Below are positions 7,096-59,874 of a DNA stretch of 64,000 bases, in pieces. The notes beneath the pieces are model-generated. The model searched no databases, was not told where the DNA came from, and worked only from the letters and a program-made list of their open reading frames with translations. Position 1 is the first letter of the stretch, and the number at the start of each line of letters is the position of its first letter. Both the position numbers and the translations under genes were made by a program. Origin of the DNA: Gammaproteobacteria bacterium (lineage in GTDB: Bacteria; Pseudomonadota; Gammaproteobacteria; Steroidobacterales; JACDCP01); assembly GCA_050740235.1 (NCBI GenBank), contig JBOIDB010000072.1, positions 972-64,971 of the forward strand, given 5' to 3'.

Positions 7096-8537
7096 GCAAT
7101 CGCTCCGACGCCCTGTATCTGGCCATCGACCAGGGCGGACACGCCAGCCGCGCCCTGCTGTTCGACGTCTCCGGCCAAGTCGTCGCGTCCGCATTCGCGC
7201 CGCTCGACACGCGGCATCCGCGTGAGGGTTGGGTGGAGCATGACGCGAAATCGATGATCGAATCCGTCCAGCTCGCCATACGCGATGTGCTGAGCGAAGT
7301 GGAGGACGTCGCCCGCATCCGCGCCGCCGGGCTGGCGACCCAGCGCTCCAGCATCGTGTGCTGGGACCGGCGCACGGGCGAACCTTTGTCGCCGGTCCTC
7401 TCGTGGCAGGACCGGCGCAATGCGGCGTGGCTCGAGCGCCAGCGCCTCGAACCGGACGAGTTGCGTAACATCACAGGCCTCGTGCCTTCGCCGCATTACG
7501 GCGCGAGCAAGCTGCGCTGGTGCCTCGATCATCTCGAAGCCGTGCGCCTCGCGAGCGAGCGAAAAACGCTCGCACTCGGCCCGGTGGCCGGCTTTCTCCT
7601 GTTCCGGCTGCTTGCCGGGCGACCATTCGTCATCGATCCGGCCAACGCGTCCCGCACGCTGCTGTGGGACTACCGATCGCGCGACTGGTCGGCATCTCTG
7701 CTCGAACAGTTCGGCTTACCGCGCCCGATTCTGCCGGACTGCGTCGGCAGCCGGCATGCGTTCGGCCATTTGCCGGTTGCCGGCGCGAGCATTCCGTTGA
7801 CGGTTTGCACCGGTGATCAATCCGCCGTGCCCTTTGCGTTCGGTCCGCCAGGCGCCGGAGCGGCGTATATCAACATCGGCACCGGCGCATTCGTGCAGCG
7901 CCTTATCGGTCGCGCGCCGCCGGCGACGCGGGGGCTGCTCGTCAGCGTGGCCTGGCAGCACGCGGCCGAGGCCATTTACGTCCTCGAAGGAACGGTCAAC
8001 GGTGCCGGCAGCGCGCTGGACGCGATCGGCTGCGCGCAGCCCGCTTCGGCATCCAAAGCGCGCGACGATACAGAGCTGCTGTTTCTCAACGGCGTCGGCG
8101 GCCTGGGCTCTCCGTTCTGGCTGCCGGAGTTCGAGTCGCGATTCATCGGTGACGGCGACGCGACTGCTCGGCAGGGCGCCGTCCTTGAAAGCATCGCCTT
8201 TCTCCTGCGGGAGAACCTCGATTTGATGCAGGAATTGTCCGGACGGCTCGAATGGCTCATCGTGACCGGCGGCATCGCGTCGCGCGACGAGTTGTGCCGG
8301 GCGATCGCCGGGCTCAGCGGAGTGAGTGTGCGGCGGCCGGAGTTGCGCGAAGCCACGGCGCGCGGACTGGCGTGGCTGGTCGCAGACCGGCCGTCCGGCT
8401 GGGAGGTGCCGATGGAGGAATTCGCGCCGGCGCGGGACGCGGGACTGCGATCGCGATTCGCGCGATGGCGCAAAGCTATGCGGAGCGCGATTCGGAAGTC
8501 AGGGCATCGAGTATCCGGGCGTCGATCCAGCTCGTGA
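7092..8537 (+). CDS. FGGY-family carbohydrate kinase (glycerol kinase-like)
   Basis: ATG 7092 overlaps the upstream stop (ATGA). N-terminus LYLAIDQGGHASRALLFD..GWVEHD matches FGGY kinases. The track ORF from 6699 is an over-extension. Confidence 0.8.
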   Translation: MSNRSDALYLAIDQGGHASRALLFDVSGQVVASAFAPLDTRHPREGWVEHDAKSMIESVQLAIRDVLSEVEDVARIRAAGLATQRSSIVCWDRRTGEPLSPVLSWQDRRNAAWLERQRLEPDELRNITGLVPSPHYGASKLRWCLDHLEAVRLASERKTLALGPVAGFLLFRLLAGRPFVIDPANASRTLLWDYRSRDWSASLLEQFGLPRPILPDCVGSRHAFGHLPVAGASIPLTVCTGDQSAVPFAFGPPGAGAAYINIGTGAFVQRLIGRAPPATRGLLVSVAWQHAAEAIYVLEGTVNGAGSALDAIGCAQPASASKARDDTELLFLNGVGGLGSPFWLPEFESRFIGDGDATARQGAVLESIAFLLRENLDLMQELSGRLEWLIVTGGIASRDELCRAIAGLSGVSVRRPELREATARGLAWLVADRPSGWEVPMEEFAPARDAGLRSRFARWRKAMRSAIRKSGHRVSGRRSSS

Positions 8538-9513
8538 GGCCGTAGCCCTGCAGAAAACCGCAGTGGCCGCCGAAGGTCGTGGTTTCGATGGTCAGACACT
8601 GCGGCGCCTTCAGCCGCCCCGCGTCCGCGAAAGGGATGATCGGATCGTCGATGGCGAGAATGACATGCGACGGCACCGACAGCTCGTCGAGCGCCCCGTC
8701 GACGATGCCGTAGCCTTTCAGATAGGCGGCAAGATCCGCAAACTCCGAATGGTGGCGCACCAGATAGTCCGTCATTTCCGTCAATGTCTTCAGCGCCAGC
8801 AGCTCGCGAAAGTCATAGATACCGGGATGACAGGACTGCTTGAGCTTGAGCGAGCGCTTCCACTTGCCGACGAAATGCAGCCGGTAGCCGAGCCAGCCGG
8901 ATTCGAGCGCCTCGAGCGTGTGCTCGGGATCGAGCACCGGGCAGACCGCGACTACGCGTTCGATGGCGAGATTCGCCTTGCGGGCTCGCGCGGCCACGCG
9001 AAGCGCGAAGTTTCCGCCAAGCGAGAAGCCGGCGAGATAAAGCCGATGCTGCGGAAGCCTGCGGGCGATTGCCTGCACGGCGCCGACGACTTCGTCGAGG
9101 CGGCAGGAATGGAAGACCTCGACGTTCAGGTGATGGCTTGCGCCGTGATCGCGAAGATTCAGCCGGAAGACGTCGAAACCGCGCGCATACAGATGCGCGG
9201 CCGCGGAAAGCTGGTAGGTCGAATCGGCGCTGCCCTCCCAGCCGTGAATGAGCACGACGATGCGAGGGGACATGCCCGACTTCGCGTCTGCGAAATCAGG
9301 CATGTCCCCTTTTGCCTGCGACGCTCCGTGCGAAGGCCCCGCGTAATAACCCTGCAAGCGCACGCCGGCGCCGCAATCGAGCACCAGGGGCCGCGAGGCT
9401 TCGAGGAGCTTGCGCGCTCGACGCATGACGAACGGGCGGCGCAGCCGCATGCTCGCGAGCACCGCCTGCACGTGCGGATTGCGCAGCGCGCGGTTGGGAA
9501 CGAATGGGCTCAA
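8476..9513 (-). CDS. Alpha/beta hydrolase, YheT/ABHD-type
   Basis: VVLIHGWEGSADS, nucleophile elbow GFSLGG, N-terminal F.P.R.L.NPH.Q. TTG start at 9513. The 3' end overlaps the convergent FGGY kinase gene by 62 bp. Confidence 0.8.
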   Translation of the reverse strand: MSPFVPNRALRNPHVQAVLASMRLRRPFVMRRARKLLEASRPLVLDCGAGVRLQGYYAGPSHGASQAKGDMPDFADAKSGMSPRIVVLIHGWEGSADSTYQLSAAAHLYARGFDVFRLNLRDHGASHHLNVEVFHSCRLDEVVGAVQAIARRLPQHRLYLAGFSLGGNFALRVAARARKANLAIERVVAVCPVLDPEHTLEALESGWLGYRLHFVGKWKRSLKLKQSCHPGIYDFRELLALKTLTEMTDYLVRHHSEFADLAAYLKGYGIVDGALDELSVPSHVILAIDDPIIPFADAGRLKAPQCLTIETTTFGGHCGFLQGYGLTSWIDARILDALTSESRSA

Positions 9514-34419: not shown

Positions 34420-34432
34420 ATAATCTTTCGCG

Positions 34433-43706: not shown

Positions 43707-43724
43707 CTTTGCCGTCCACGCACG

Positions 43725-43797
43725 AAGGGGTTCCCGGTACCCTTTCTCAGTCGCTCCCCGATATGAGCTTGGTGAGAAAGGGTACCGGGAACCCCTT
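43725..43797 (+). repeat. Family-C hairpin, copy 1 (conserved loop, perfect 24-bp stem)
   Basis: Arms AAGGGGTTCCCGGTACCCTTTCTC (43725-43748) and its exact complement (43774-43797). Loop AGTCGCTCCCCGATATGAGCTTGGT (43749-43773). Starts 19 nt after the mdh stop. Confidence 0.9.
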
Positions 43798-43855
43798 GCC
43801 GGGCGTGATCACCTGCTGATCGTCACGTGGCGGTCGGCAAACGCTCACGCTGGCG

Positions 43856-43927
43856 GAGGAGATGCCTGTGTCCTTTTTCAGTCGCTCCCCGATATGAGCT
43901 TGGTGAAAAGGACACAGGCATCTCCTC
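43856..43927 (+). repeat. Family-C hairpin, copy 2 (same loop, unrelated perfect 22-bp stem)
   Basis: Arms GAGGAGATGCCTGTGTCCTTTT (43856-43877) and its exact complement (43906-43927). The loop (43878-43905) contains the identical core TCAGTCGCTCCCCGATATGAGCTTGGTGA. Confidence 0.9.
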
Positions 43928-43995
43928 GTTTGCATGCGCCTTTTCACCAGGCAAGTATCGGGGAGCGACTGCGAAAGGGTGCAGGGAACCCCTCG
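43924..43995 (-). repeat. Family-C hairpin, copy 3 (inverted, decayed stem)
   Basis: The reverse complement of 43944-43974 gives TCGCAGTCGCTCCCCGATACTTGCCTGGTGA, with the core 21/25 identical to copy 1. The right flank (43973-43995) is 20/23 identical to the copy-1 right arm. The two flanks pair at only ~14/22 positions. Confidence 0.8.
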
Positions 43996-44089
43996 TTCTT
44001 GAACGTTTCAGGTGCCGAAGCTGCGCTATAGTAGCCGCATCACGCATCTCGACGCCGGCGCCCGCCGCGCGGCCTAAAGCGAGGTAATC

Positions 44090-46627
44090 ATGGCGGAGAG
44101 TCTTTTCTGGCTGGCGCTTTTCCTCGGCGGCATCATCGCGCTCGCGTACCATCGCGTCGACTACAAGACCTCCACCATCGCCATCGGCATCGCGCTCGTC
44201 GCCTACACGATCTTCGGCGACGGCAACTTCTTCTGGCTGCTCCTGCTCTGGCTCGTCTTCGCCGGGCTGGCCGCGCTCAATTTCGAGGACCTGCGCCGCG
44301 ACCGTATCTCGCGCCCGCTGTTGCGCATGGCGCGCGAGCTGTTGCCGCCGATGTCACGCACCGAGCGCGAAGCGCTCGAAGCCGGCAGCGTCTGGTGGGA
44401 AGGCGAGCTGTTCGGGGGCCTGCCCGACTGGGACAAGCTCGTGTCGATGCCCGCGCCGAAGCTCAGCGAGGAGGAGCACGCCTTCCTCGACGGGCCTTGC
44501 GAGGAGCTGTGCCGCATGCTCGACGACTGGAAGATCACGCACGAGCAGGGCGACATGAGCCCGGAGGTCTGGCGGTTCATCAAGGACCGCGGATTCTTCG
44601 CGATGATCATCCCGAAACGCTACGGCGGACTCGAGTTTTCCGCGCTCGCGCATTCGGCCGTCCTCGCCAAGGTGGCCAGCCGCAGCGCGACCGCCGCCTC
44701 GACCATCGCCGTGCCGAACTCGCTGGGGCCGGCAGAGCTGCTGCTCCATTACGGCACGGAGGCGCAGAAAGAGCGGTATCTGCCGGGGCTCGCCAATGGC
44801 ACGGAAGTGCCCTGCTTCGCGCTGACCGGCCCTCGCGCGGGCTCGGATGCCGCATCCATTCCCGATACCGGCATCGTGTGCAAGGGCGAGCTCGACGGCG
44901 AGGAGATCGTCGGCATACGGCTGAACTGGGACAAGCGCTACATCACGCTCGCGCCGATCGCCACCGTACTCGGCCTCGCGTTCAAGCTGTACGACCCCGA
45001 ACACCTGATCGGCGATCAGGACGACCTCGGCATCACCGCGGCGCTGATTCCGACCGACACGCCCGGCGTCACGATCGGCCGGCGGCACTATCCGATCAAC
45101 ATCCCGTTCCAGAACGGGCCGACGCAGGGCAAGGACGTCTTCATGCCGCTCGACTGCATCATCGGCGGTGTCGAGATGGCCGGCGAGGGCTGGCGCATGC
45201 TGATGGAGCAGCTCGCGGTCGGCCGCTGCATCTCCCTGCCGTCGAACGCGACGGGCGGCGCGAAGGCCGCCACCCGGGCGAGCGGCGCCTATGCACGCAT
45301 CCGCCGCCAGTTCGACCTGCCGATCGCCGAGTTCGAAGGTGTCGGCGAAGCGCTCGCGCGCATGGCCGGCCGCACCTACACCATGAATGCCGGGCGCACG
45401 GTGACAGCCGGCGCCGTGGATCAGGGCGAAAAGCCGGCCGTGCCCTCTGCGATCCTCAAGTATCACACGACGGAAATGGGCCGCCTGGTCGCCAACGACG
45501 CCATGGATGTGCACGGCGGCAAGGGCATCTGTCTCGGGCCGAACAACTATCTCGCGCGCAGCTACGAATCCGTGCCGATCGCCATCACCGTCGAGGGCGC
45601 CAACATTCTGTCGCGCAGCCTCATCATCTTCGGCCAGGGGGCCATCCGCTGTCATCCGTACGTGCTGCGCGAAATGCATGCGGCGCAGGACGAGGACCAC
45701 GAGCGCGGGCTCGACGAGTTCGATCGCGTGGTGTTCGACCACGTCGGCAATGCGATCGGCAACGCGGCACGCTCGCTCGTGCTCGCCCTGACGAATGCCA
45801 GGTTCACCGGCGTGCCCGTGCACGGCGCGGTGCGGCGTTACTACCAGCACATCAACCGCTTCAGCGCGTCCTTCGCCCTGGCCGCCGACGTGGCCATGCT
45901 GACCCTCGGCGGCAGCCTCAAGAAGCGCGAGCTGCTGTCCGCCCGGCTTGGCGACGTGCTGAGCGCCATGTATCTCGCCTCGATGGTCCTCAAGCATTAC
46001 GAAAACGAAGGCCGGCCCGCGGAGGATCTGCCGCTGGTGGAATGGGCCTGCCGCGATCTGCTCTACGACGCGCAGGAAAAGCTGCACAGCTTTCTGCGCA
46101 ATTTCCCGAACGGACTCGTCGCGACGGTGCTGCGCCTGCTCGTGTTCCCCCGCGGCCTGACGTATTCCGCGCCGGGTGATGCCCTGGGCCGCGCGGTCGT
46201 CGAGCTGGTCACGCATCCGACCACGGCGCGCGAACGGCTCTGCGCCGGTACGTACAACGCCCGTGCGCATGACAACCCGCTCGGCCTGCTCGATGAGGCG
46301 CTCGAGCTGGCCCTCGAGGCCGAGCCGCTCCTGAAGCGCCTGCACGCAGCCGTTCGCGCGGGCAAGCTCAGCGCGCCGGACCTGCCCCGCGAAATCGACG
46401 CTGCCGAAAAGCAGTCGATTCTGAGTCCGGAGGAAGCCAACAAGCTGCGCGAGCTCGACCGCAAAGTCATGCGCATCATCGCCGTCGACGACTTCCCGCC
46501 GGGCGCATTCGGCGTGAAAGCCGCCCAGGCCACAAAAGCGCGCAAGGAAAGCCGGCCGCCGAAGGCGGAGCGGCAAACGGCGACTGCGGAACAGACCGAA
46601 CAGCCGGCCCGCGAAGAACGAATCTAG
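44090..46627 (+). CDS. fadE: Large (FadE-type) acyl-CoA dehydrogenase
   Basis: 845 aa. N-terminal membrane-anchor-like helices, then ACAD domains (...FFAMIIPKRYGGLEFS..., ...GEGWRMLMEQLAVGR..., ...VHGGKG...). Size and layout match E. coli-type FadE. Confidence 0.9.
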   Translation: MAESLFWLALFLGGIIALAYHRVDYKTSTIAIGIALVAYTIFGDGNFFWLLLLWLVFAGLAALNFEDLRRDRISRPLLRMARELLPPMSRTEREALEAGSVWWEGELFGGLPDWDKLVSMPAPKLSEEEHAFLDGPCEELCRMLDDWKITHEQGDMSPEVWRFIKDRGFFAMIIPKRYGGLEFSALAHSAVLAKVASRSATAASTIAVPNSLGPAELLLHYGTEAQKERYLPGLANGTEVPCFALTGPRAGSDAASIPDTGIVCKGELDGEEIVGIRLNWDKRYITLAPIATVLGLAFKLYDPEHLIGDQDDLGITAALIPTDTPGVTIGRRHYPINIPFQNGPTQGKDVFMPLDCIIGGVEMAGEGWRMLMEQLAVGRCISLPSNATGGAKAATRASGAYARIRRQFDLPIAEFEGVGEALARMAGRTYTMNAGRTVTAGAVDQGEKPAVPSAILKYHTTEMGRLVANDAMDVHGGKGICLGPNNYLARSYESVPIAITVEGANILSRSLIIFGQGAIRCHPYVLREMHAAQDEDHERGLDEFDRVVFDHVGNAIGNAARSLVLALTNARFTGVPVHGAVRRYYQHINRFSASFALAADVAMLTLGGSLKKRELLSARLGDVLSAMYLASMVLKHYENEGRPAEDLPLVEWACRDLLYDAQEKLHSFLRNFPNGLVATVLRLLVFPRGLTYSAPGDALGRAVVELVTHPTTARERLCAGTYNARAHDNPLGLLDEALELALEAEPLLKRLHAAVRAGKLSAPDLPREIDAAEKQSILSPEEANKLRELDRKVMRIIAVDDFPPGAFGVKAAQATKARKESRPPKAERQTATAEQTEQPAREERI

Positions 46628-46635
46628 CCCGGTGC

Positions 46636-47943
46636 ATGCCGCCGACCGAGCTCATCTATGAAGTGACGCTCGACATCGAGCCGGCCATCGAGGCCGAGTT
46701 CGATGAATGGCTCGAGCGCCACGTCGCGGAAATGCTCGAGCTGCCCGGCTTCGAGCGCGCCGAGCTCGAGACGGAAGCCGCGTCCGACAATGCATCCGGG
46801 TTGCGCCGCACGGTGCGCTATGCGATGCGGGACCGCGACGCGCTCGACGACTATCTCAAACAGCATGCCGATCGCATGCGTCAGGCGGGCACAGACCGCT
46901 TCGGCGGGCGCTTCAAGGCCACCCGCCGCATTCTGGAGCTGACGCCGCTCGGCGATCACGAGCATCCCGTGCTGCCGCATTGCGCGAATTGCGGCAATCG
47001 ACTGAGGGGACAGTATTGCGCGCGATGCGGCCAGCGCGCGCGGCGGCGAATGATCACGCTCTGGGAGCTGTTCCGCGACGTCGCGGAAGAGCTCTTCCAG
47101 CACGACTCTCGCGTCTGGCGCAGCTTCTTCCCGCTGCTGTTCCGGCCGGGATTCCTCACCAGCGAGTATCTGGCCGGTCGTCAGATGCGCTACGTGCCGC
47201 CTGTGCGCATGTACCTGTTCCTGAGCATCGTGTTTTTCCTGCTCGCGTTCGTCGCCGGGCCCGAAGGAGAGTTGTCCCTGTCGCCAGATGGCGTGCGGTT
47301 CGAAAAGTCTCCCGACGCCACCGGCGAGACGTCCGCAGAAGCGCCCGATGCAGGGCAGGAACAACCCGGGAACCCGGAGGAAGCATTGGAGCAAGCCTTC
47401 GAGACAGGCGAGGGCTTCGAGGAATTCGATTGCGCAGAGATAGATGGTGGGGTCAGGACCGGCTGGCCGATGCTCGATAGCCGTCTCTCGCGCGAGAGGA
47501 TCATCAGCAGCTGTGAGCGACTCGCCGCGGACCCGCGCGCGTTCGGTCGGGCGGTGCTCTCCAACCTGCCGAAGATGATGTTCCTCTTCCTGCCGCTGCT
47601 CGCCCTGGTGCTCAAGTTCCTCTACATCGGCTCGCGGCGGTACTACAGCGAGCACCTGCTGTTCGCCGTGCATTTCCATGCGTTCTTCTTCCTGATAGTG
47701 ATCCTCGACATCCTCCTCGGCATGGTCGTGCAGGGCATAGGCGCCGGCAATCGCCTGGCGTCGATCACGACGACAGTGATCGTCTTCTATATCCCGTGGT
47801 ACCTGTACCGTGCCATCCGCAATGTCTACGATCAGCATCTGCTGATACGGATGGTCAAGTATTTCTTCCTGGTGATCGCCTACTTCGTGAGCCTGGTGAT
47901 CATGCTCCTGATCACGTTGGCGTTCACCGCGCTGACGCTATAG
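46636..47943 (+). CDS. DUF3667-like zinc-ribbon membrane protein with N-terminal DUF4286-like domain
   Basis: N-terminal ~100 aa (LIYEVTLDIEPAIEAEFDEWLERHVAEML..). Zinc ribbon CANCGNRLRGQYCARCGQ, then FRPGFLTSEYLAGRQMRYVPPVRMYLF and several TM helices. Confidence 0.7.
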   Translation: MPPTELIYEVTLDIEPAIEAEFDEWLERHVAEMLELPGFERAELETEAASDNASGLRRTVRYAMRDRDALDDYLKQHADRMRQAGTDRFGGRFKATRRILELTPLGDHEHPVLPHCANCGNRLRGQYCARCGQRARRRMITLWELFRDVAEELFQHDSRVWRSFFPLLFRPGFLTSEYLAGRQMRYVPPVRMYLFLSIVFFLLAFVAGPEGELSLSPDGVRFEKSPDATGETSAEAPDAGQEQPGNPEEALEQAFETGEGFEEFDCAEIDGGVRTGWPMLDSRLSRERIISSCERLAADPRAFGRAVLSNLPKMMFLFLPLLALVLKFLYIGSRRYYSEHLLFAVHFHAFFFLIVILDILLGMVVQGIGAGNRLASITTTVIVFYIPWYLYRAIRNVYDQHLLIRMVKYFFLVIAYFVSLVIMLLITLAFTALTL

Positions 47944-48005
47944 AGGCTCGAGCGCGGCGCCGGGCTGCTAAAATGAAGACAACCGAAGTCCATCGGAGGA
48001 CTCCC

Positions 48006-48551
48006 ATGCCCACCAGACTCACCCTCGGGATCCTCGGCGCGGCGCTCATGCTGTGCGCCTGCGGCGGCCCGAATATTCAGGTCGAAAGGGATCCGGACGC
48101 GAACCTCGTGGAGTACGAGAGCTATTCCTGGGTTGCGCCGGAGCAGCAGGACGTCGAGGACCCCATCCTGGACAGCGCGCTGCTGTCGAAGAAGGTCGAA
48201 CGCGCCATTCGCGCGACGCTCGACGAGCGCGGATTCGAGGCGACCGAGACCAATCCCGACTTCTACGTCACGTATCACACCGCGAGCAAGGAGAAACTCC
48301 GCACGACCGGCTTCAACGTCGGCATCGGCTACAGCCGCTTCGATCCGCGTTGGGGTTATGCGGCCGTGTTCGGTCCACCCGAAGTCCGGTCTTACGAGGA
48401 GGCCGTTCTGATCATCGACGTCGTGGACGCCGAGACCGACACGCTCGTCTGGCGCGGCTGGGAGACGGGGCGTCTGAGCCGCGAGCGGTTCTCTGCGGAG
48501 GCGGTCGACGTGGCGGTAGAGCAGATCCTGTCGCGCTTCCCGATCGGGTGA
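48006..48551 (+). CDS. DUF4136-like lipoprotein
   Basis: ATG 48006 with GGAGGA 5 nt upstream. Lipobox AALMLCACGG. A paralog-like relative of 36649-37242. The track ORF from 47796 is an over-extension. Confidence 0.7.
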   Translation: MPTRLTLGILGAALMLCACGGPNIQVERDPDANLVEYESYSWVAPEQQDVEDPILDSALLSKKVERAIRATLDERGFEATETNPDFYVTYHTASKEKLRTTGFNVGIGYSRFDPRWGYAAVFGPPEVRSYEEAVLIIDVVDAETDTLVWRGWETGRLSRERFSAEAVDVAVEQILSRFPIG

Positions 48552-48670
48552 GGGGAACGGGGACATTCCTGATTCTCCGGGGGAAATGGGGACATCCCTG
48601 ATTTCCTTGGAAAGGTTCCGGAAATCAGAAAACACTGCATTCTTCGGAAATCAGGAATGTCCCCATTTCC
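48552..48670. repeat. Family-B repeat cluster B1 (two forward units, one partial unit, one reverse unit)
   Basis: Forward units are 48552-48578 (GGGGAACGGGGACATTCCTGATTCTCC) and 48579-48606 (GGGGGAAATGGGGACATCCCTGATTTCC). A partial unit, CCGGAAATCAG, lies at 48618-48628. The reverse unit CGGAAATCAGGAATGTCCCCATTTCC lies at 48645-48670. Consensus GGAAATGGGGACATTCCTGATTTYC. Confidence 0.9.
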
Positions 48671-49826
48671 TCCACGCGCGATCCTGCATGTCGACATGGA
48701 CGCGTTCTACGCGTCCGTCGAGCAGCGCGATGAGCCGTCGCTGCGCGGCAAGCCGGTGCTGGTCGGGGGCGCCGGGCCGCGAGGCGTCGTCGCCGCGGCG
48801 AGCTACGAGTCGCGCGTCTACGGCATCCGATCGGCGATGCCCATGCGCGAAGCGCTGACACGCTGCCCGCACGCGGTCTGCGTGCCGCCACGCTTCGATA
48901 GCTACCGGCGGGAATCGGCGTGCATCTTCGCGATCTTTCACGGCTTCTCGCCCCTGGTAGAGTCGCTCTCGCTCGACGAGGCGTTCATCGACGTCACGGC
49001 GAGTCGCTCGTTGTTCGGAGATGCGGCGGCGATCGGCCGGGCGATCAAGGACAGAATTCGCGATGCGACCCGTCTGAGCGCCTCCGTCGGAATCGGTCCC
49101 AACAAGCTCGTTGCCAAAATTGCGTCGGATCTCGACAAGCCGGACGGCCTGCGCCTCGTCGATGACGACAGCTTGCAGTCGACGCTGGATCCGTTGCCGG
49201 CGCGCGTCCTGCCCGGGGTCGGCCCGCGAGCCGCCGGGCATCTCCGCCGCATCGGGCTGACGACCCTCGGCGAGCTGCGCCGCGCTCCGGCCTCGCGCCT
49301 GCAGCCGATCTTCGGCCGTTACAGCGAGCAGATACGCCAGCGCGCTGCGGGGGTCGACGACCGGCCGGTAGTTCCGGACGCCGCGCGCAAGTCGATCAGC
49401 GCCGAGGAAACCTTCGATGCCGACCTGCCGCAGGGTCCCGAGCTGTCGCGCGAGCTGGCGCGGCTCGCCGATCGCACCGCTGCACGTTTGCGCGCGAGCG
49501 GCCTCGTCGCGGGCTGCGTCTGCGTCAAGATCCGCCGCCCGGATTTCGCCACGTTCACGCGGCGGCGGAGCCTCCATCCTCCGGCCAGCGGATCGCGCCT
49601 CATTCACGGCGCGGCCCGCGAGTTGCTCGGGCAATGGTTCGCTGCCGCGCCAGACGCGAAGCTGAGGCTGCTCGGAGTCGGGGTCGAGGATCTCGAGCCT
49701 GCCGGCCAGGCCGATCTGCTGGCCGCTCTCGGCACGGCCGGGAATGACGCGATAGACGATGCCGTCGACCGGATCCGCGCCCGTTTCGGCGAGGCCGCCC
49801 TCGGCAGCGCCCGCACGCTGCGGTGA
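48657..49826 (+). CDS. dinB: DNA polymerase IV (Y-family)
   Basis: ILHVDMDAFYASVEQRDEPSLRGKPVLVGG...GVVAAASYESRVYGIRSAMP. The only canonical in-frame start upstream of the catalytic HVDMD motif is ATG 48657, which lies inside repeat unit B1c. Confidence 0.9.
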   Translation: MSPFPPRAILHVDMDAFYASVEQRDEPSLRGKPVLVGGAGPRGVVAAASYESRVYGIRSAMPMREALTRCPHAVCVPPRFDSYRRESACIFAIFHGFSPLVESLSLDEAFIDVTASRSLFGDAAAIGRAIKDRIRDATRLSASVGIGPNKLVAKIASDLDKPDGLRLVDDDSLQSTLDPLPARVLPGVGPRAAGHLRRIGLTTLGELRRAPASRLQPIFGRYSEQIRQRAAGVDDRPVVPDAARKSISAEETFDADLPQGPELSRELARLADRTAARLRASGLVAGCVCVKIRRPDFATFTRRRSLHPPASGSRLIHGAARELLGQWFAAAPDAKLRLLGVGVEDLEPAGQADLLAALGTAGNDAIDDAVDRIRARFGEAALGSARTLR

Positions 49827-49864
49827 GCGGTCCGGACCCCTTTTGAGGTCCCCGCGCGTTAAGT

Positions 49865-49952
49865 GAGAATCGGGGTCAGACCGGATTTTTCCGAACGGCA
49901 TTCTACGGAGACCAGACGCAGATGGAGAAAATCCGGTCTGACCGCGGTTCTT
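49865..49952. repeat. Family-A inverted-repeat element (copy A2)
   Basis: GAGAATCGGGGTCAGACCGGATTTTTCC (49865-49892) faces GGAGAAAATCCGGTCTGACCGCGGTTCTT (49924-49952). It shares the core AATCGGGGTCAGACCGRGATTT with copy A1 and lies between dinB and exeA. Confidence 0.85.
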
Positions 49953-49989
49953 CGGCGGTAGAATACGCTGACCTGTTAGCCGGCTGACG

Positions 49990-51636
49990 ATGTACACGAG
50001 TTTTTTCGGCCTGAAAGAACGGCCGTTCGCCATCACGCCGAATCCGCGATACCTGTTCATGAGCGAGCGGCATGCGGACGCGCTCGCGCACCTGCTCTAT
50101 GGCGTAACCGAGAGCGACGGCTTCATTCAGCTCACCGGCGAGGTCGGCACCGGCAAGACGACGCTGATCCGCAGCCTGCTGGAGCAGCTGCCCGAGCACG
50201 TCGAGGCCGCGCTGATCCTCAACTCGCGGCTCTCGCCGAACGAGTTCCTGGTGGCGATCTGCGAAGAGTTGCGCATCCCCGTGCCCGCCGACCCGAACAG
50301 CGTCAAGGCGCTGGTCGACGCGCTCAACGCGCACCTTCTGGAAGCGCACGCGCAGGGACGGCGAGTCGTGCTCATCGTCGACGAGGCGCAGAACCTCGGC
50401 GCCGACGTCCTCGAGCAGGTCCGTCTGCTCACGAATCTCGAAACCGACCGGCAGAAGCTCCTGCAGATCATCCTCATCGGCCAGCCCGAGCTCAGGCAGG
50501 TGCTGGACCGCACCGATCTCCGGCAGCTCGCGCAGCGGATCACCGGCCGCTTTCATCTCGAGCCGCTGACGCGCGAGGAAAGCCGCGGCTACGTGGCGCA
50601 TCGTCTGCGAGTCGCCGGAGCGACCTCGGATATCTTCACGCCGCAGGCCCTCAACGAAGTGCACAGGCTGTCCGGCGGCGTGCCCCGGATCGTCAACGTC
50701 ATCTGCGACCGCGCGCTGCTCGGCGCGTATTCCCGCGAACAGCGTACGGTATCGCCGAAGCTCGCCCGCATTGCCGCGGCGGAGGTCTACGGCCGCGACA
50801 TGAGTCCCGTGTGGCACCGCTGGCTGACCAGCGGCGGCATCGTGGCGGCGGTCGGACTCGTCGCCCTCGGCCTGTGGCGCATCGGCGAGAGCGTCGGCAG
50901 CCGACAGGCCGGAGCGCGCGCCGACACTGAAACCATGGCGGAGGCGCCCGCCGCCGAAGCCAGGCCCGGGGCCGGCCAGCCTGCCGCGAGCACTTCAGAG
51001 CCGGCCGGCGAGCAGTCGTTTCAGACGCTCCTCGAAGATCACATCGCCACGACCGGCAACGATGCCGCCTTCACGACGCTGTTCGGCCTCTGGAGCGCCG
51101 AGTACCGGCCGGACGGGGGTCGGGCTTGTGCCCAGGCGGCCGATTTCGGGCTGCGTTGCGTCGTATCGCGCGGCTCGTGGGCCGATCTGTATCGCCTGCG
51201 CCGCCCGGCGATTCTCACCCTGACGGACGATGCGGGTGTTCAATACCAGGTCGTGCTGACCGGCCTCGGCGATGAGTCGGCGCGGCTGGATTTCGGCGGC
51301 GCCTCGCACGAGGTGCGCATCGGCACGCTGTCGCGTTACTGGTTCGGCGACTATCTGCTGGTCTGGCAGCCGCAGACCGGACAGGTGCGGCCGCTGACGG
51401 TCGGCATGCGCGGCGAGGACGTGCTCTGGCTGCGCGACAGCCTCGCCGCGCTGCAGGGGGAACCGGCAGACTCCGCGCGCCCGGAGGTCTTCGACGAGGC
51501 GCTCGCGGCACGCGTGCGCGAATTTCAGCGCAGCCGCCGGATCAGGGTCGACGGGATCGCCGGCGAGCGCACCTTGATCCTGGTCAATGCCGAGCTCTAT
51601 CCCGAGGGCACGCCATTGCTGGCGGAAACGGGTTAG
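49990..51636 (+). CDS. exeA: ExeA/GspA-family AAA ATPase with C-terminal peptidoglycan-binding domain
   Basis: MYTSFFGLKERPFAITPNPRYLFMSERHADALAHLLYG...LTGEVGTGKTTL. A TM helix, then a C-terminal PG-binding-like region (RVREFQRSRRIRVDGIAGERTL). Confidence 0.9.
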   Translation: MYTSFFGLKERPFAITPNPRYLFMSERHADALAHLLYGVTESDGFIQLTGEVGTGKTTLIRSLLEQLPEHVEAALILNSRLSPNEFLVAICEELRIPVPADPNSVKALVDALNAHLLEAHAQGRRVVLIVDEAQNLGADVLEQVRLLTNLETDRQKLLQIILIGQPELRQVLDRTDLRQLAQRITGRFHLEPLTREESRGYVAHRLRVAGATSDIFTPQALNEVHRLSGGVPRIVNVICDRALLGAYSREQRTVSPKLARIAAAEVYGRDMSPVWHRWLTSGGIVAAVGLVALGLWRIGESVGSRQAGARADTETMAEAPAAEARPGAGQPAASTSEPAGEQSFQTLLEDHIATTGNDAAFTTLFGLWSAEYRPDGGRACAQAADFGLRCVVSRGSWADLYRLRRPAILTLTDDAGVQYQVVLTGLGDESARLDFGGASHEVRIGTLSRYWFGDYLLVWQPQTGQVRPLTVGMRGEDVLWLRDSLAALQGEPADSARPEVFDEALAARVREFQRSRRIRVDGIAGERTLILVNAELYPEGTPLLAETG

Positions 51637-51641
51637 CCTGC

Positions 51642-52322
51642 ATGTCGTTCATTCTCGACGCCCTGAAGAAGTCCGAGATCGAGCGCCAGGAGCAGGCCGG
51701 CCCGAGCGTCGCGCACGTGCGCGAAGGTCAGCCGGACTCCCGCCGGCCGCTGTGGATCGCCGGCATCGCGGGCCTGCTGGCCGTCAATCTCATCGTCCTG
51801 CTGTTCTTCGCGTTCCGTTCGCCGGCCGCTCCCGAGCCGGCAGCACCGGAGACCGAGGCGCCTGCGTCGGCCTCCGGAAATGCTCCGACTGTCTCCAAGC
51901 AGCCGGCTCGCAGGTCCGTCGCGCGCCCGGCCGCGTCGCCGGATCGTGAGGTGCGACCGCTCGTGGCGGAGGCCGAGCCGCAGCCGGCGCCGCGTGTTGC
52001 CGCCTCCTCCCCTGCTCCCGCCGAGCCGTCTCGCCAGGCGCCGTCACGCGCAGCGTCGTCGATCGGACCCGCCGTCCCGGACGAAACCGCAACTTTGCCG
52101 ACCTTCAACGATCTCGTGGTCGACGGTCGCCTGTCCCTGCCGCCGCTGCATCTCGACATCCATGTCTACAGCGATGTCCCCGCATCCCGTTTCGTGTTCA
52201 TCGACGGGCGCAAGTACCACGAGGGCGAACGCCTTACTGCCGGCCCGCAGGTCGAGCGCATCACCGAGACGGGTGTCGTGTTGAGCCACGAGGGCGAGCA
52301 ATTCCTGCTGCCGCGCATGTAG
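51642..52322 (+). CDS. gspB: General secretion pathway protein B (ExeB/GspB-like)
   Basis: MSFILDALKKSEIERQ N-terminus, a TM helix, a Pro/Ala-rich linker, and C-terminal LHLDIHVYSDVPASRFVFIDGRKYHEGERL. It follows exeA. Confidence 0.8.
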   Translation: MSFILDALKKSEIERQEQAGPSVAHVREGQPDSRRPLWIAGIAGLLAVNLIVLLFFAFRSPAAPEPAAPETEAPASASGNAPTVSKQPARRSVARPAASPDREVRPLVAEAEPQPAPRVAASSPAPAEPSRQAPSRAASSIGPAVPDETATLPTFNDLVVDGRLSLPPLHLDIHVYSDVPASRFVFIDGRKYHEGERLTAGPQVERITETGVVLSHEGEQFLLPRM

Positions 52323-52327
52323 GCGCG

Positions 52328-52849
52328 ATGAAACTGCAAGGCTCCTGCCACTGCGCGTCCGTGCGCTTCGAGCTCGAATCCGCGCATCCGTATCCGTTCA
52401 TGCGCTGCTACTGCTCGATCTGTCGGAAAACCGCCGGCGCCGGCGGTTACGCCATCAATCTGGCGGGCGACAACCGCACCCTGAAAGTCACCGGCAAAAA
52501 GCATGTCGGCGTCTACCGCGCGAGAATGGCCGAGGAGAAAAGTGGCAAAACCACGTACAGCTCGGCCCGCAGGCACTTCTGCAAGCAATGCGGCAGCCCG
52601 CTGTGGCTTTGGGATCCGAACTGGCCGGATCTCGTGCACCCGCACGCTTCCGCAATCGACACCGAGCTGCCGGTGCCGCCCGAGCACACACACATGATGC
52701 TGGGATCCAAAGCGATGTGGGTGGAGGTGGAGGTGGAGGCGAAGCCGCGTGACCGGAGGTTCGACGAGTATCCGGAGGAGTCGATCGCCGATTGGCATCA
52801 GCGGCTGGGCCTGGAGAGAAGGAATCAGGACGATAAAGCCGACAACTGA
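52328..52849 (+). CDS. GFA (glutathione-dependent formaldehyde-activating / CENP-V) family protein
   Basis: Cysteine pattern GSCHCASVRF ... CYCSICRK ... CKQCGSPLW. Confidence 0.8.
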   Translation: MKLQGSCHCASVRFELESAHPYPFMRCYCSICRKTAGAGGYAINLAGDNRTLKVTGKKHVGVYRARMAEEKSGKTTYSSARRHFCKQCGSPLWLWDPNWPDLVHPHASAIDTELPVPPEHTHMMLGSKAMWVEVEVEAKPRDRRFDEYPEESIADWHQRLGLERRNQDDKADN

Positions 52850-52931
52850 GGCCTCATCGCAAGACTGAATCCTTGCCGGCCGAATCGGTCGGAGTTCGTG
52901 ACCGGCCTGTAGTGACGCAAGGAAAGCCTTT

Positions 52932-54386
52932 TTGCGATCGACTGTCATTTCATTCGCTGTTCTTGCGGCTTGCGCGTGCGGGCCGCTCGAGCCTGCGGCT
53001 GCGGCCACGCTTCATCGCTACACGGCGAGCGTCGATCCGAAGCTCGAATCGATCGAGGTCCGCGCCTGTTTCGACGGCCCTGCACCTTCTCGGCTCGTGG
53101 CTTCTCGTGCCGCCACAGGAGCGCTCGCGCGCATTCCCCGAGTTGACGGCAGCGCCGGCGCGGTGCGCCGGCTCCACGGAGAGTTGCGGCTCGAGGATCT
53201 GTCGGACGATGCGTGCATCCTCTATGCGACACGGCTTCGGGACGTCATCGAGCGCGAAGGCCGATGGCGAACGGCCGGCGGAGAGATCATCACGAGCGCG
53301 GACGATTGGCTATGGCGGCCGCGGGAGCTGCCTGAGGACGCGGATATCGAGATTGCCTTTGTGACGGCAGAAGGCATGTCCGTCTCGGCACCATGGCCAT
53401 TGATCGAGCGAGTGTCAGGTCGCAGCGTATACCGGGTCGGTCATACGTCTCGCTACTGGCCCGCGCGCGTGGCGTTCGGCGATTTCGATATCGACACGAT
53501 CGAGGTGCCCGGGGCTCGCCTGCACCTGGCGCTGTTGCGCGGCATCGGGCAGGCCGATCACGATGCAGTCCGGCGCTGGCTCGGCGAAGCGGCGACGGCC
53601 GTCAGTACTTTGTACGGCCGGTTTCCGCTCGACTCGGCACAGATTCTCGTATTGCCCGCGAGCCGCAGCGGCGAGCCGGTGCCGTGGGCCCAGGTGCTGC
53701 GTGGCGGCGGGGCGTCCGCCCACTTCTTCATCAATGCCGTCGCCAGCGAAGCGGAACTGCGCAGCGACTGGACCGCGGCGCACGAGCTAAGTCATATGCT
53801 GATGCCGTACATCGACCGCGACGACGCCTGGCTTTCGGAAGGCTTTGCCAGCTATTTCCAGAACGTGTTGCGCGCCCGCGCCGGCCTTTTGAGTGCGGCC
53901 GAAGCATGGCAGAAGCTGGATCAGGGGTTTCAACGCGGCATCGACGGCACGGTGGAAGGCCGGTCATTGCGCGAGGCGAGCGGCAGCATGAACCGGGATC
54001 ACGCCTATATGCGTGTGTACTGGAGCGGAGCCGCAATCGCGCTCATGGCCGACGTTCGCCTGCGGCAGCAGTCGGACAACCGGCAGTCGCTCGGCACGGC
54101 GCTCGAGGCGCTGGGCACGTGCTGCCTTCCCGGCACCCGCACCTGGAGCGCTCACGAGCTGTTCCTCGAGCTGGACGAGCTGACCGGCACCGACGTCTTC
54201 AGCGACCTGTACGCCAGGTACGCCGATGCGCGGAAGTTTCCGGACCTGCGCGCCGTCTACGCGCAGCTCGGGCTCGTCGGCAGCGCCGATCGGTTGCGGC
54301 TCGAACCGGACGCGCCGATGGCAGGCGTGCGCGATGCGATCATGAGCGCGCCGCAGAAACTGGCGAACGGCAAACACCCGCAATAA
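52932..54386 (+). CDS. Secreted zinc metallopeptidase (gluzincin, HEXXH...E)
   Basis: TTG start preceded by AAGGAAAG. Signal peptide RSTVISFAVLAACACG. AAHELSHMLMPYIDRDDAWLSEGFASYF gives HELSH with a glutamate at the spacing expected for the third zinc ligand of M1/M61-like peptidases. Confidence 0.7.
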   Translation: MRSTVISFAVLAACACGPLEPAAAATLHRYTASVDPKLESIEVRACFDGPAPSRLVASRAATGALARIPRVDGSAGAVRRLHGELRLEDLSDDACILYATRLRDVIEREGRWRTAGGEIITSADDWLWRPRELPEDADIEIAFVTAEGMSVSAPWPLIERVSGRSVYRVGHTSRYWPARVAFGDFDIDTIEVPGARLHLALLRGIGQADHDAVRRWLGEAATAVSTLYGRFPLDSAQILVLPASRSGEPVPWAQVLRGGGASAHFFINAVASEAELRSDWTAAHELSHMLMPYIDRDDAWLSEGFASYFQNVLRARAGLLSAAEAWQKLDQGFQRGIDGTVEGRSLREASGSMNRDHAYMRVYWSGAAIALMADVRLRQQSDNRQSLGTALEALGTCCLPGTRTWSAHELFLELDELTGTDVFSDLYARYADARKFPDLRAVYAQLGLVGSADRLRLEPDAPMAGVRDAIMSAPQKLANGKHPQ

Positions 54387-54433
54387 AGCCGCCTTCATGC
54401 CATCCGGCGCGACGTGCGACAATCGCGTCCGCC

Positions 54434-55582
54434 ATGGGCAGCCAACGACACTTGAAACCGGAAACGCTCGCGATACACGCCGGCCGCAGGCCGGGCGCGG
54501 AATCCGGCGCCGTCACCCCGCCGATCCACCTGTCGACGACTTACGTGCGCGCGGCCGACGGCAGCCTGCTGCACGGACACAACTACAGCCGCGAATCCAA
54601 TCCGACGCGCGACGCGCTCGAAGCCGGCCTCAGCGCCCTGGAAGGCGGCCGCGCCGCCGCGGCCTTCGCTTCAGGCTCTGCAGCGGCTCTGGCCGTCTTC
54701 AACACGGTGGACCCGGGCGGGCACATTGTCGCCTCCGCGGACGCCTATCACGGCATCGTCCGGCAACTCCGTGAGATCGTCGCCCGCTGGGGCACAGTGG
54801 TCTCGCTCGCCGATGCCAGCGATCCGGAGGCGGTGCGCGCGGCGATGCGCAAGGACACGCGCCTGGTCTGGATCGAAACGCCGTCCAACCCGCTGCTCAA
54901 GATCACGGACATCGGCGCCCTTGCGGAAATTGCGCATTCCGGCGGGGGCGTCCTGGCCTGCGACAACACGTTCGCGACCCCGATCCTGCAGCAACCGCTC
55001 GCGCTCGGCGCGGATCTCGTCGTGCACAGCACGACGAAATACATCGGCGGGCACAGCGATATCGTCGGCGGTGTGGTCGTCGCCCGCGAGAACGACGAGC
55101 GCTTTGCGCGAATCCGGCACTTTCAGGCGATCGGGGGCGCGGCGCCTTCGCCGTTCGATTGCTGGCTGCTCCAGCGCAGTATTGCCACATTGCCGTGTCG
55201 AGTCCGCACCCAATCCGAGTCGGCGGCAACCATTGCGCAGTTCCTGATGCGACGCACGGACGTCGAGAGCACGCTCTATCCCGGACTCTCGACCCATGCC
55301 GGGCACGCGCTGGCGGCGCGTCAGATGAAAGCGTTCGGCGGCATGTTGTCCTTCTGCGTTCGGGGCGGCGCTGCGGAAGCACTGCGCGTCGCAGCCGGCG
55401 TTCGCCTGTTCACGCGCGCAACCAGTCTCGGCGGCATCGAGAGCCTGATCGAGCACCGCGCTTCCTCTGAAGGACCGCACACACGCGCGCCCGCCAATCT
55501 GCTGCGCCTGTCCATCGGGCTCGAGCATGCCGACGACCTGAAAGCTGATCTCGAGAACGCGCTCGACGCGGCCGCGCTCTAA
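54434..55582 (+). CDS. Cys/Met-metabolism PLP-dependent enzyme (cystathionine gamma-synthase / beta- or gamma-lyase family)
   Basis: From ATG 54434: ...ETLAIHAGR....GAV.PPIHLSTTY...SR..NPTR.ALE, then STTKYIGGHSD (PLP lysine region). The track ORF from 53393 is an over-extension. Confidence 0.85.
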   Translation: MGSQRHLKPETLAIHAGRRPGAESGAVTPPIHLSTTYVRAADGSLLHGHNYSRESNPTRDALEAGLSALEGGRAAAAFASGSAAALAVFNTVDPGGHIVASADAYHGIVRQLREIVARWGTVVSLADASDPEAVRAAMRKDTRLVWIETPSNPLLKITDIGALAEIAHSGGGVLACDNTFATPILQQPLALGADLVVHSTTKYIGGHSDIVGGVVVARENDERFARIRHFQAIGGAAPSPFDCWLLQRSIATLPCRVRTQSESAATIAQFLMRRTDVESTLYPGLSTHAGHALAARQMKAFGGMLSFCVRGGAAEALRVAAGVRLFTRATSLGGIESLIEHRASSEGPHTRAPANLLRLSIGLEHADDLKADLENALDAAAL

Positions 55583-55590
55583 CAGGATGT

Positions 55591-55748: not shown

Positions 55749-55799
55749 ACGCCGGTATGTCTTGATCCCGAATCCGGCACCGTGGACGGCGACATTCGC

Positions 55800-57502: not shown

Positions 57503-57547
57503 GGGGTCGGAATTATAGAGCCTCTCGCCCGCCTCTCCCCCGACTTC

Positions 57548-58198: not shown

Positions 58199-58308
58199 CG
58201 TGCGAAAACTCCAGAGATGCTTGGGGTGGTCTGAAAATACCACTATACTTGACCAATATCAACATATGTGATAAAACGCCCACCGACATAACAAAAGGAA
58301 AAGCCGCC

Positions 58309-58884: not shown

Positions 58885-58888
58885 TTCA

Positions 58889-58978
58889 GGGGAAATGGGG
58901 ACATTCCTGATTTTCTGAGCGAAACCAGCACCTCGGCTGTCGAACGATCCCGAAAATCAGGAATGTCCCCAATTTCCC
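58889..58978. repeat. Family-B inverted-repeat element B2
   Basis: GGGGAAATGGGGACATTCCTGATTTTC (58889-58915) faces GAAAATCAGGAATGTCCCCAATTTCCC (58952-58978) across a 36-nt spacer. It starts 5 nt after the FlhC-like stop codon. Confidence 0.9.
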
Positions 58979-59874
58979 GGAAAGCCCCGCCCCTGCCGAA
59001 CGTATTTTCCGGCCTGCACGTCGACCGCGTCGCGCACCGGCGACGGGATTCGGCGTGGATCGAGCGCGCGCTGGTCTCCTCACGCACGCGCTTCGTGCCG
59101 GTACAGGACAAGCTGAGCCTCGTAAAGAACGGCGAGCCGCCTCGCCCGGTCCTTCTCGATCACGATCAGATTGCGCGAGCCGGCCTGCAGGCGGGCTCGC
59201 CGATCTATCTCGGCCGATTCGGCGGGCACGACTGTTTTGCCTGCGCTCTGACCGCCGACGCAGCACCCGCAGCCGACCTCGGTGGCGAGTTTCAGGATCT
59301 GCATCGGGTCGGCGCGCTGCTCGAAACCGCCGACGCCACGCTGCTCGCTTATGCGCGCGCCATGGTGCTTTGGCACCGGAATCACCGGCACTGCGGGCGC
59401 TGCGGCGCGCCGATCGCCATCACCGAAGCCGGCCACGTGCTGGTCTGCTCGGATGAGCAATGCGGCACACAGCAGTTTCCGCGCCTCGACCCTGCGATCA
59501 TCGTGCTGGTCGCGGACGAGGAGCGCTGCCTGCTCGGACGCCAGGCCGGCTGGCCGGCCGGCCGCTACTCGACGATCGCCGGCTTCGTCGAGCCCGGTGA
59601 AAGCCTCGAGGATGCGGTCACGCGTGAAGTTCACGAAGAGACCGGCGTCGAAGTGCGCGACGTGCAATATCATTCATCGCAACCGTGGCCTTTTCCGGCA
59701 TCGTTGATGCTCGGCTTCTCGGCGCGTCCTGCCAGCACGGCCATCGAGCTTCACGACCGCGAGCTCGAGGACGCGCGCTGGTTCACCCGCGAGGAAATCG
59801 CCGCGGGCCGGGCGGGCTTCCCGCCCAAAGTCTCGATCTCGTTTCGCCTGGTCGAGGATTGGCTCTCGTCATAA
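58963..59874 (+). CDS. nudC: NAD(+) diphosphatase / NADH pyrophosphatase (Nudix)
   Basis: Zinc ribbon HCGRCGAPIAITEAGHVLVCSDEQCGTQQFPR. Nudix box GFVEPGESLEDAVTREVHEETGV, then SQPWPFP. ATG 58963 lies inside repeat unit B2b. Confidence 0.9.
   Translation: MSPISRKAPPLPNVFSGLHVDRVAHRRRDSAWIERALVSSRTRFVPVQDKLSLVKNGEPPRPVLLDHDQIARAGLQAGSPIYLGRFGGHDCFACALTADAAPAADLGGEFQDLHRVGALLETADATLLAYARAMVLWHRNHRHCGRCGAPIAITEAGHVLVCSDEQCGTQQFPRLDPAIIVLVADEERCLLGRQAGWPAGRYSTIAGFVEPGESLEDAVTREVHEETGVEVRDVQYHSSQPWPFPASLMLGFSARPASTAIELHDRELEDARWFTREEIAAGRAGFPPKVSISFRLVEDWLSS

Follow-up and report, generated by a model that had tools for sequence, protein, structure and literature searches.

We analyzed a 64,000-nt stretch of genome from a Gammaproteobacteria bacterium (GCA_050740235.1, contig JBOIDB010000072.1, positions 972 to 64,971 of the forward strand; hereafter the window), in which dinB, the gene for DNA polymerase IV (Pol IV), begins inside a short palindromic repeat. 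Units of a repeat family, here called family B, occupy the whole gap between the stop codon of a DUF4136 lipoprotein gene and dinB, and donation of the dinB start codon by the last of these units is well supported by comparison with related sequences. The same comparison gives good support to the view that dinB has lost its original ribosome-binding site and ATG, along with its first two to three codons, and that the repeat now stands in their place. A small palindromic repeat would thus have replaced the whole region in which translation of a conserved gene begins, and the gene survives on the donated start codon. We consider it probable that the arrangement as a whole is a passive, accidental attenuator of dinB that derives from a selfish or structural repeat.

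The repeat cluster and the start of dinB

The cluster (48552-48673) consists of four units of the consensus (G)GAAAT-GGGGACATTCCTGATTT-CC, two in each orientation, with one of the reverse units degenerate. The units are arranged in the order + + - - as a nested composite. The features of the junction, with the matches obtained using nhmmer or Pfam, are as follows.

48006..48551, + strand: DUF4136 lipoprotein gene, likely start ATG 48006 (MPTRLTLGILGAALMLCACGG...); Pfam DUF4136, E = 1.9e-31
48552-48578, + strand: unit 1, GGGGAACGGGGACATTCCTGATTCTCC; nhmmer match 48554-48574, E = 3.9e-6
48579-48606, + strand: unit 2, GGGGGAAATGGGGACATCCCTGATTTCC; nhmmer E = 3e-8
48607-48619, no strand: central loop of the composite palindrome, 13 nt, TTGGAAAGGTTCC
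48620-48645, - strand: unit 3 (degenerate), GGAAATCAGAAAACACTGCATTCTTC; weak nhmmer match 48619-48628
48646-48673, - strand: unit 4, GGAAATCAGGAATGTCCCCATTTCCTCC, which is the perfect 25-mer GGAAATCAGGAATGTCCCCATTTCC (0 mismatches) plus TCC; nhmmer E = 2.9e-9
48657..49826, + strand: dinB (DNA polymerase IV, 389 aa); Pfam IMS E = 5.3e-53 (residues 12-158) and IMS_C E = 1.9e-25

The core of unit 1 is intact, and its outer GGAAAT flank has been exchanged for what appears to be a remnant of the ancestral spacer. The first 9 nt of unit 3 are exact and paired with the 3' end of unit 2. Four matches to the 25-mer consensus (allowing up to 3 mismatches) occur in the window, compared with 0.00 expected from 100 shuffles, and the 17-mer core is found seven times, compared with 0.07 expected. 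Reading the sequence back agrees with the initial annotation of this DNA, which had described the units as filling the entire spacer between the lipoprotein gene and dinB, the last one in reverse orientation.

The upstream protein carries a signal peptide with a lipobox (MLCAC), and its stop codon (TGA 48549-48551) directly abuts the cluster. Its open reading frame (ORF; 47796-48551) shares the reading frame of dinB. Read-through fusion of the two genes was ruled out, as two stop codons lie between them (TGA 48549 and TGA 48570, the second inside unit 1) and both would need to be suppressed.

The ORF of dinB opens at the first ATG, GTG or TTG past the in-frame stop. This codon, ATG 48657, is the sole canonical in-frame start ahead of the HVDMD motif, and the next in-frame start is the methionine of that motif, use of which would presumably cost the protein its first catalytic aspartate. 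The initial annotation had named ATG 48657 as the only canonical in-frame start upstream of the motif, and this holds. Unit 4 contains the ATG (48657-48659, in the context GGA-ATG-TCCCC) and codons 2-5 (S-P-F-P), so that the first five residues, MSPFP, come from the repeat (ATG TCC CCA TTT CC) and the new N-terminus reads MSPFP-PRAILHVDMD. An AGGA abuts the ATG with zero spacing; it cannot serve as a properly spaced ribosome-binding site, and the gene lacks one.

In other respects dinB is an ordinary gene. An NCBI protein identical over all 389 aa (P0001) is annotated as DNA polymerase IV. The closest other DinB (P0002) is 86% identical, and many further matches of the same search are named DNA polymerase IV. 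The translation includes both HVDMD and SLDEA, as well as the little-finger domain. As judged from the sequence, dinB is intact and has evolved under purifying selection, with ratios of nonsynonymous to synonymous substitution (dN/dS) of 0.14, a value that averages over both lineages, and 0.22 relative to the two loci described next.

For comparison, 8-kb windows around loci in related genomes were fetched (L-numbers). The adjacency of DUF4136 and dinB is orthologous in L001 (dN/dS 0.14) and L002 (dN/dS 0.22). In L002, where DinB is 71% identical, the TGA is followed by 14 nt (GCGGGAGCGTCCCG) that include a GGGAG ribosome-binding site, and then by ATG GCG ACG CCC CGC. By this comparison, the L002-type junction, with its 14-nt spacer, GGGAG and own ATG, is the ancestral state. 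In L001 (DinB 86% identical) the spacer holds another hairpin repeat (GGGGTCAGATCTCGTTTTATG ... CATAAAACGAGACGTGACCC), and the native start, ATG CAA CAG CCA CGC, is kept immediately 3' of it. The sequence shared by the window and these relatives begins only at CCACGCGC, at approximately 48672 (CCA CGC GCG ATC CTG, encoding PRAIL), and everything upstream to the TGA is repeat. The repeat ATG sits two codons upstream of the ancestral start position. Among the first 60 DinB homologues checked, all 58 with a readable N-terminus have the form M/V-x(3-18)-ILHVDMD, and MSPFP occurs in none. Comparison of dinB 5' regions in relatives, which had been proposed as a check, thus supports donation of the start codon by the repeat.

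We suggest that a repeat element landed in the 14-nt operon junction in the lineage of the window and in doing so would have erased the ribosome-binding site, the ATG and the first two to three codons. The gene would still be translatable only because the outward-facing terminal unit has an in-frame ATG and an open frame. A metagenome scan for nearer dinB relatives returned a best match that was merely 62% identical and did not refine the timing of the insertion.

The repeat in the L001 spacer (L001 18-110, core GGGGTCAGA) belongs to a different family, and the window itself has a similar hairpin elsewhere (9530-9558/9587-9615; 29-nt arms, 93% complementary). As the L001 and window spacers hold different repeat families, the junction was hit twice independently, and three states of it are now in hand: empty, occupied by family B and occupied by the other family. 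The public gene call for the L001 protein (P0002; L001 150-1280, 376 aa) starts at the methionine inside HVDMD, and the in-frame ATG CAA CAG CCA CGC, 10 codons upstream of that methionine, was bypassed by the gene caller. From the sequence, this start was probably mis-called beside a hairpin repeat.

A dispersed repeat family and the genes that begin in it

The consensus was derived from 181 units, in which the outer flanks and the interiors vary. A 20-nt core is invariant across many species, and loops and flanks are variable. A census of the 17-mer GGGGACATNCCTGATTT in GTDB species genomes found it in at least 111 stretches (a lower bound), overwhelmingly from Steroidobacteraceae and unclassified gammaproteobacterial metagenome-assembled genomes (MAGs). 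The family is dispersed across more than 20 Steroidobacteraceae-like MAGs, with 8 to more than 20 loci in a single MAG and a density of approximately one locus per 20 kb. A profile built from the 181 units, all from outside the window, detects six significant units within it (48554-74, 48582-607, 48646-70, 58891-916, 58952-76 and 9291-9315), which make three loci in 64 kb.

Exact units are mostly found in head-to-head pairs. Neighbouring exact units form 56 '+-', 6 '++', 3 '--' and no '-+' pairs, and 112 of 186 units are in exact pairs. The head-to-head pairs fold into hairpins of 25-55 bp. Gaps within pairs fall into discrete classes (6, 16 and ~40 nt) with a maximum of 259 nt, and nested and tandem clusters are also seen. 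The pairs can be described as terminal inverted repeats, with arms of 25-40 nt around short non-coding cores of 6-259 nt. Some genomes have a longer variant, with terminal repeats of ~38 nt (GGGGACATTCCTGATTTGCTAGCAAAAGGGGACG). A single 25-nt unit is only a weak palindrome (GGAAAT/ATTTCC plus an inner stem of 3-4 bp; -4.7 kcal/mol, z = -2.2, with 11 of 200 shuffles as stable). Five of the six reading frames of the unit are open. The genes around the repeats differ from locus to locus, and copies that face gene 3' ends (69) outnumber those that face 5' ends (36).

We looked for the hallmarks of known mobile elements. Direct repeats of 3-5 nt, at offsets of 0-9 from the arms, match in only 0-2 of the 56 pairs, which does not indicate target-site duplication. 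Neither flank of the 181-unit consensus carries a GTAG or CGTC tag. No recurrent gene family that could represent a REP-associated tyrosine transposase (RAYT) or an insertion sequence was found when ORFs within 1.5 kb of the repeats at 111 loci were clustered, and in the fetched loci no pair encloses an ORF of transposase size. Matches to the 17-mer in viral contigs number 10, all of them singletons with no pairs, and so give no sign of a phage-borne element. An Rfam search across the window gave no matches at the gathering score (sub-threshold matches, including those of a sensitive local scan, were only to generic microRNA hairpins), and a literature search with the repeat sequence gave no relevant match. 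A Tn3-derived miniature element, with 38-bp ends starting GGGG, was considered and rejected, as a 5-bp duplication is absent and the inverted repeat extends into the conserved AAAT outside the GGGG. The description of the family as an undescribed, 'untagged' short palindromic interspersed repeat of REPIN- or MITE-like type (MITE, miniature inverted-repeat transposable element) fits these observations. Its mobility is suggested solely by the dispersed, lineage-variable distribution.

REP doublets, or REPINs, of Pseudomonas and enterobacteria are mobilised by RAYTs and consist of inverted short units that form long hairpins and are dispersed, mostly in extragenic positions (PMC3116915, PMC3733652). 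Family B resembles them in its head-to-head doublets that form hairpins, its dispersed and apparently mostly extragenic copies, its greater frequency downstream of genes, its multi-unit clusters, its discrete size subfamilies within a genome and its lack of target-site duplication. However, REPs are defined by a GTAG (or CGTC) tetranucleotide at one end (PMC3733652), which family B lacks. It also differs in the weakness of the single-unit palindrome (-4.7 kcal/mol, z = -2.2), in the absence of a RAYT flanked by units among the 111 loci, and in a 17-nt core (GGGGACATTCCTGATTT) that recurs with its AAAT flank in many species. Membership in the RAYT-mobilised class is not established. As in MITEs, terminal inverted repeats surround a short core, but target-site duplication is missing.

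Could the units instead be binding sites for a host protein (an operator or nucleoid-protein site) or DNA-uptake signals, so that their placement at dinB reflects regulation at the level of DNA? Uptake sequences of Neisseria occur as inverted pairs downstream of genes, which the present pairs resemble. The invariance of the 20-nt core, as opposed to flanks and loops, and the weak, imperfect palindromy of each unit would also suit a binding site, as would the near-complete conservation of the arms at a second locus (nudC, below), where they differ by a single 1-nt indel at a synonymous divergence (dS) of 0.71. However, the spacing of paired units ranges from 6 to 259 nt, with nested and tandem clusters; copies are inserted within coding sequences; occupancy of orthologous sites varies by lineage; and no class of neighbouring genes recurs. 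Both the length of the units and their density (a locus every 20 kb or so) are a better fit to interspersed repeats. We regard this explanation as highly improbable.

Start codons within the repeat are not confined to dinB. The second family-B hairpin of the window fills the gap from the TAA of the upstream gene (58882-58884) to nudC, leaving 5-6 nt between stop codon and hairpin.

58885..58982, no strand: second family-B hairpin, arms 58885-58915 / 58952-58982 (31 nt, 90%), loop 36 nt
58963..59874, + strand: nudC-like NADH pyrophosphatase gene; Pfam NUDIX, NUDIX-like and Zn_ribbon_NUD

The ATG of the reverse unit is the sole start codon for nudC from -78 to +120 nt (MSPISRK...). A locus in MAG JACDCP (MGR_bin311; L091) is syntenic with the window at ~80% DNA identity and has the hairpin at the orthologous place (L091 5463-5530). 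The arms are near-identical, with the one 1-nt indel in the 3' arm, and the loop has diverged. Between the ATG of nudC and the conserved block N(V/I)F(S/A)GLHVDRVAHRR, the window and L091 differ by a net 18 nt, which preserves the frame. As arms and frame are retained in L091, there is good reason to regard the repeat ATG as the functional start of nudC. The repeat ATG is likewise the only plausible start for hutU in L106 (MSPFFTATRYRDVEL...), for trpF in L058 (MSPFPLFIKICGL...) and for an MFS transporter gene in L056.

Genes that read away from a unit fall into the three frames relative to the repeat ATG in the ratio 11:5:12. The ATG frame is not enriched, so donation looks like the survival of compatible insertions and not like a selected function. 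It was this ratio that led us to give up the view that selection favors the element for donating start codons.

Other copies lie inside genes, as in the third family-B locus of the window.

9266..9309, - strand: degenerate family-B hairpin, GGGGACATGCCTGATTTCGCAGACGCGAAGTCGGGCATGTCCCC, in-frame inside an alpha/beta-hydrolase gene

This hairpin encodes GDMPDFADAKSGMSP, just ahead of the HGWEGS motif of a YheT-like alpha/beta-hydrolase (gene 8476..9513, - strand), and in L048 the orthologous protein is ~14 residues shorter here. In L030 (DATLFD010000100.1, 4141-4190), two tandem 33-nt units are in-frame in a sensor histidine kinase gene, where they follow the HisKA phospho-acceptor helix and encode the peptide TTKSGMSPFSL twice. 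REPs inside genes, including replication and repair genes, have been reported (PMC3733652).

Fusion of a repeat's own ATG to host ORFs is known from REP2 of Neisseria and similar upstream repeats of Borrelia, RUP and BRE repeats extend the 5' ends of genes, and in-frame RPE repeats are also documented (PMC3184786). The family-B ATG is fused in the same way to dinB, nudC, hutU, trpF and the MFS gene. However, REP2 provides a promoter and ribosome-binding site along with the ATG, whereas family B has the ATG only, with no promoter-like sequence; its ATG lies in the 3' arm of a long hairpin, and most copies are away from gene 5' ends. As with the RPE (Rickettsia), BRE (Bordetella) and RUP/BOX (pneumococcal) repeats, palindromes are accommodated in-frame by protein genes, either internally or at their ends; sequence and host group differ, and here the native translation start region is replaced and the gene not merely extended. 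The new elements here are a repeat family without earlier description, carried by uncultured Steroidobacteraceae-like bacteria, and a well-resolved case of start-region replacement; that repeat ATGs can be fused to ORFs was known.

A bolder reading is that family B is a mobile 'start-codon cassette', an outward-facing AGGA-ATG within a hairpin that has been repeatedly adopted by unrelated genes (dinB, nudC, hutU, trpF and the transporter gene) and is opened or cleaved by one shared factor. Were this so, a dispersed set of genes would depend on a single activity, be it RNase III, a helicase of the DEAD-box type or a protein that binds the units in RNA or DNA, and such dependence would also account for the invariance of the 20-nt core across species. 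We consider this very unlikely.

Predicted burial of the start codon and its consequences

The AUG of dinB, the 15 nt that precede it and codons 2-5 all lie within the 3' arm of the palindrome. Arms 48579-48606 and 48646-48673 (28 nt each) are 93% complementary. The minimum-energy RNA fold of 48540-48700 (-80.4 kcal/mol, z = -6.2) pairs the outer two units (1 and 4) with each other, and likewise the inner two (2 and 3), which makes the cluster a single long nested palindrome. For a transcript that comes from upstream, the computed energy needed to open the region from -15 to +10 around the dinB start is 27.8 kcal/mol, compared with 16.9 and 10.2 kcal/mol in L002 and L001. Among 29 genes of the window, dinB ranks highest and nudC follows with 24.6 kcal/mol; the median is 9.7 and the highest value for an ordinary gene is 16.6 kcal/mol. 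These two outliers correspond precisely to the starts that the repeat supplies. Burial of the dinB start in a long stem is supported by folding predictions only, and these agree with the initial annotation, which had placed it in a stem of ~25 bp, except that the predicted structure is even longer.

No sigma-70-like site was found in 47850-48660, even at 8 of 12 matches to the E. coli consensus, and none was reported there by a promoter-prediction tool. The 105-nt spacer has no TA dinucleotide, and therefore no -10-like hexamer. As the cluster has no promoter-like sequence, the dinB mRNA is expected to start upstream and include both arms. No LexA box (CTGT-N8-ACAG, up to 1 mismatch) occurs in 43881-61112, and the number in the window is at chance, although this motif may not be that of the host lineage. 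The large hairpin is not followed by a U-tract, and the search for intrinsic terminators flagged a weak 5-bp mini-hairpin alone. Likeness to a CsrA/RsmA site (CA-GGA-UG) was considered and set aside, as it is imperfect and the GGA is base-paired and not in a loop.

According to the explanation that we favor, the stem would form during transcription, enclosing the AUG and its surroundings in the absence of a properly spaced ribosome-binding site, and Pol IV would be translated at a strongly reduced rate as long as nothing, such as a helicase or RNase III, unwinds or cleaves the stem. The length of the stem makes it a plausible substrate for RNase III. Correia/NEMIS elements of Neisseria and ERIC elements of Yersinia are co-transcribed hairpins that alter the expression of neighbouring genes. 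Family B resembles these in that a hairpin of 40-120 nt would be co-transcribed with the flanking genes, with an expected effect on mRNA processing or translation. It differs in showing no sequence similarity to them and no TA target duplication, and RNase III cleavage is here predicted at most. No curated Rfam family of cis-regulatory RNAs is matched at the gathering score.

The initial annotation had gone further and proposed that the repeat acts as a translational gate on an error-prone polymerase. In its strongest form, a hairpin under selection would keep Pol IV off until a signal opens the stem. Stress or temperature could be that signal, as could a helicase, cleavage by RNase III or translation of the lipoprotein gene upstream. 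Burial of the dinB start is indeed extreme (27.8 kcal/mol, first of the 29 genes) and no internal promoter was detected. At dinB, nothing separates the base of the hairpin from the preceding stop codon (at nudC, 5-6 nt do), and the arms of the nudC hairpin are conserved, bar the 1-nt indel, across a dS of 0.71. However, this architecture is typical of the repeat family as such: unrelated housekeeping genes (nudC, hutU, trpF and the MFS gene) have starts of the same type, which points to a by-product and not to a dedicated polymerase switch. The ATG frame is not favored among downstream genes (11:5:12), and copies that face 3' ends prevail almost twofold (69 versus 36). The insertion at dinB is lineage-specific, every other homologue examined having an ordinary start, and the junction has neither a LexA box nearby nor an Rfam match, so that no signal for opening the stem is apparent. 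A stem of ~28-55 bp is also far too stable for a thermometer-type switch. Since the stop codon adjoins the 5' base of the hairpin, a terminating ribosome could melt the outermost pairs only; it would unwind ~8-9 nt of unit 1, and pairing of unit 2 with unit 4 would still be possible. Thus, the proposed gate is not supported, and we consider it quite unlikely.

It could also be that dinB is effectively dead, the insertion having destroyed its start region and the in-frame ATG being accidental, so that the gene is silent or a young pseudogene that has not yet degraded. The ribosome-binding site is lost, with AGGA abutting the ATG, and the AUG is predicted to lie in a 28-bp stem. An ATG in the correct frame is expected by chance in approximately one of three cases, and the insertion is unique to the lineage of the window. 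Moreover, Pol IV is dispensable in many bacteria. However, the ORF of 389 codons is intact, with HVDMD and SLDEA and a dN/dS relative to L001 of 0.14 (averaged over both lineages), and nudC has kept the same type of start, with frame-preserving indels, across species, which indicates that such starts can work. A dead dinB is unlikely, in our view.

We therefore return to passive attenuation by an accidental insertion, against which several points must be set. The long retention of the arrangement at nudC implies that starts embedded in the repeat cannot be fully silent and presumably allow adequate expression, which weakens the expectation of strong damping. Promoters inside the cluster that are not of the sigma-70 or E. 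coli type could free the AUG, for which the opening energy is 8.5-11.7 kcal/mol if the 5' end of the transcript lies at 48607-48632. Although intact-looking, dinB could have been silenced very recently. Finally, neither a RAYT, a parent insertion sequence, a GTAG tag nor a target-site duplication accompanies the repeat in the data examined.

The same family shows that replacement of this kind recurs, and at nudC the outcome has been stable over evolutionary time. Passive attenuation predicts unusually low or processing-dependent translation of Pol IV and NudC in the lineage of the window, and these genes offer a natural system for the behavior of ribosomes at start codons within stems of 25-55 bp. 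For annotation, the N-termini that begin MSPF or MSPI in these genomes are to be read as repeat-derived, and start callers can err near repeats (e.g., P0002). No new regulatory principle for mutagenesis is shown.

Other repeats in the window

The window has further repeats that are separate from family B. A low-GC block of ~170 nt (55575-55750) contains several hairpins, including a terminator-like one (AAAAAGCCATCCATGGCTTTTT). Part of the block recurs in inverted orientation at 34386-34422, and it has four matches in MAG JACDCP at 84-88% identity (two in L026 and one each in L073 and L046). Its recurrence in this MAG indicates another interspersed repeat family. Long hairpins are also formed at 43723-43994 by a ~55-nt unit (AGGGGTTCCCGGTACCCTTTCTCAGTCGCTCCCCGATATGAGCTTGGTGAGAA) that is present there in two direct copies and one inverted copy, just upstream of an acyl-CoA dehydrogenase-like gene with its start at 44090. 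An isolated inverted repeat is found at 36478-36580, with 28-nt arms that are 96% complementary and a 47-nt loop (CTGAATGACCGGAGCCTTCTCGAAAACG ...).

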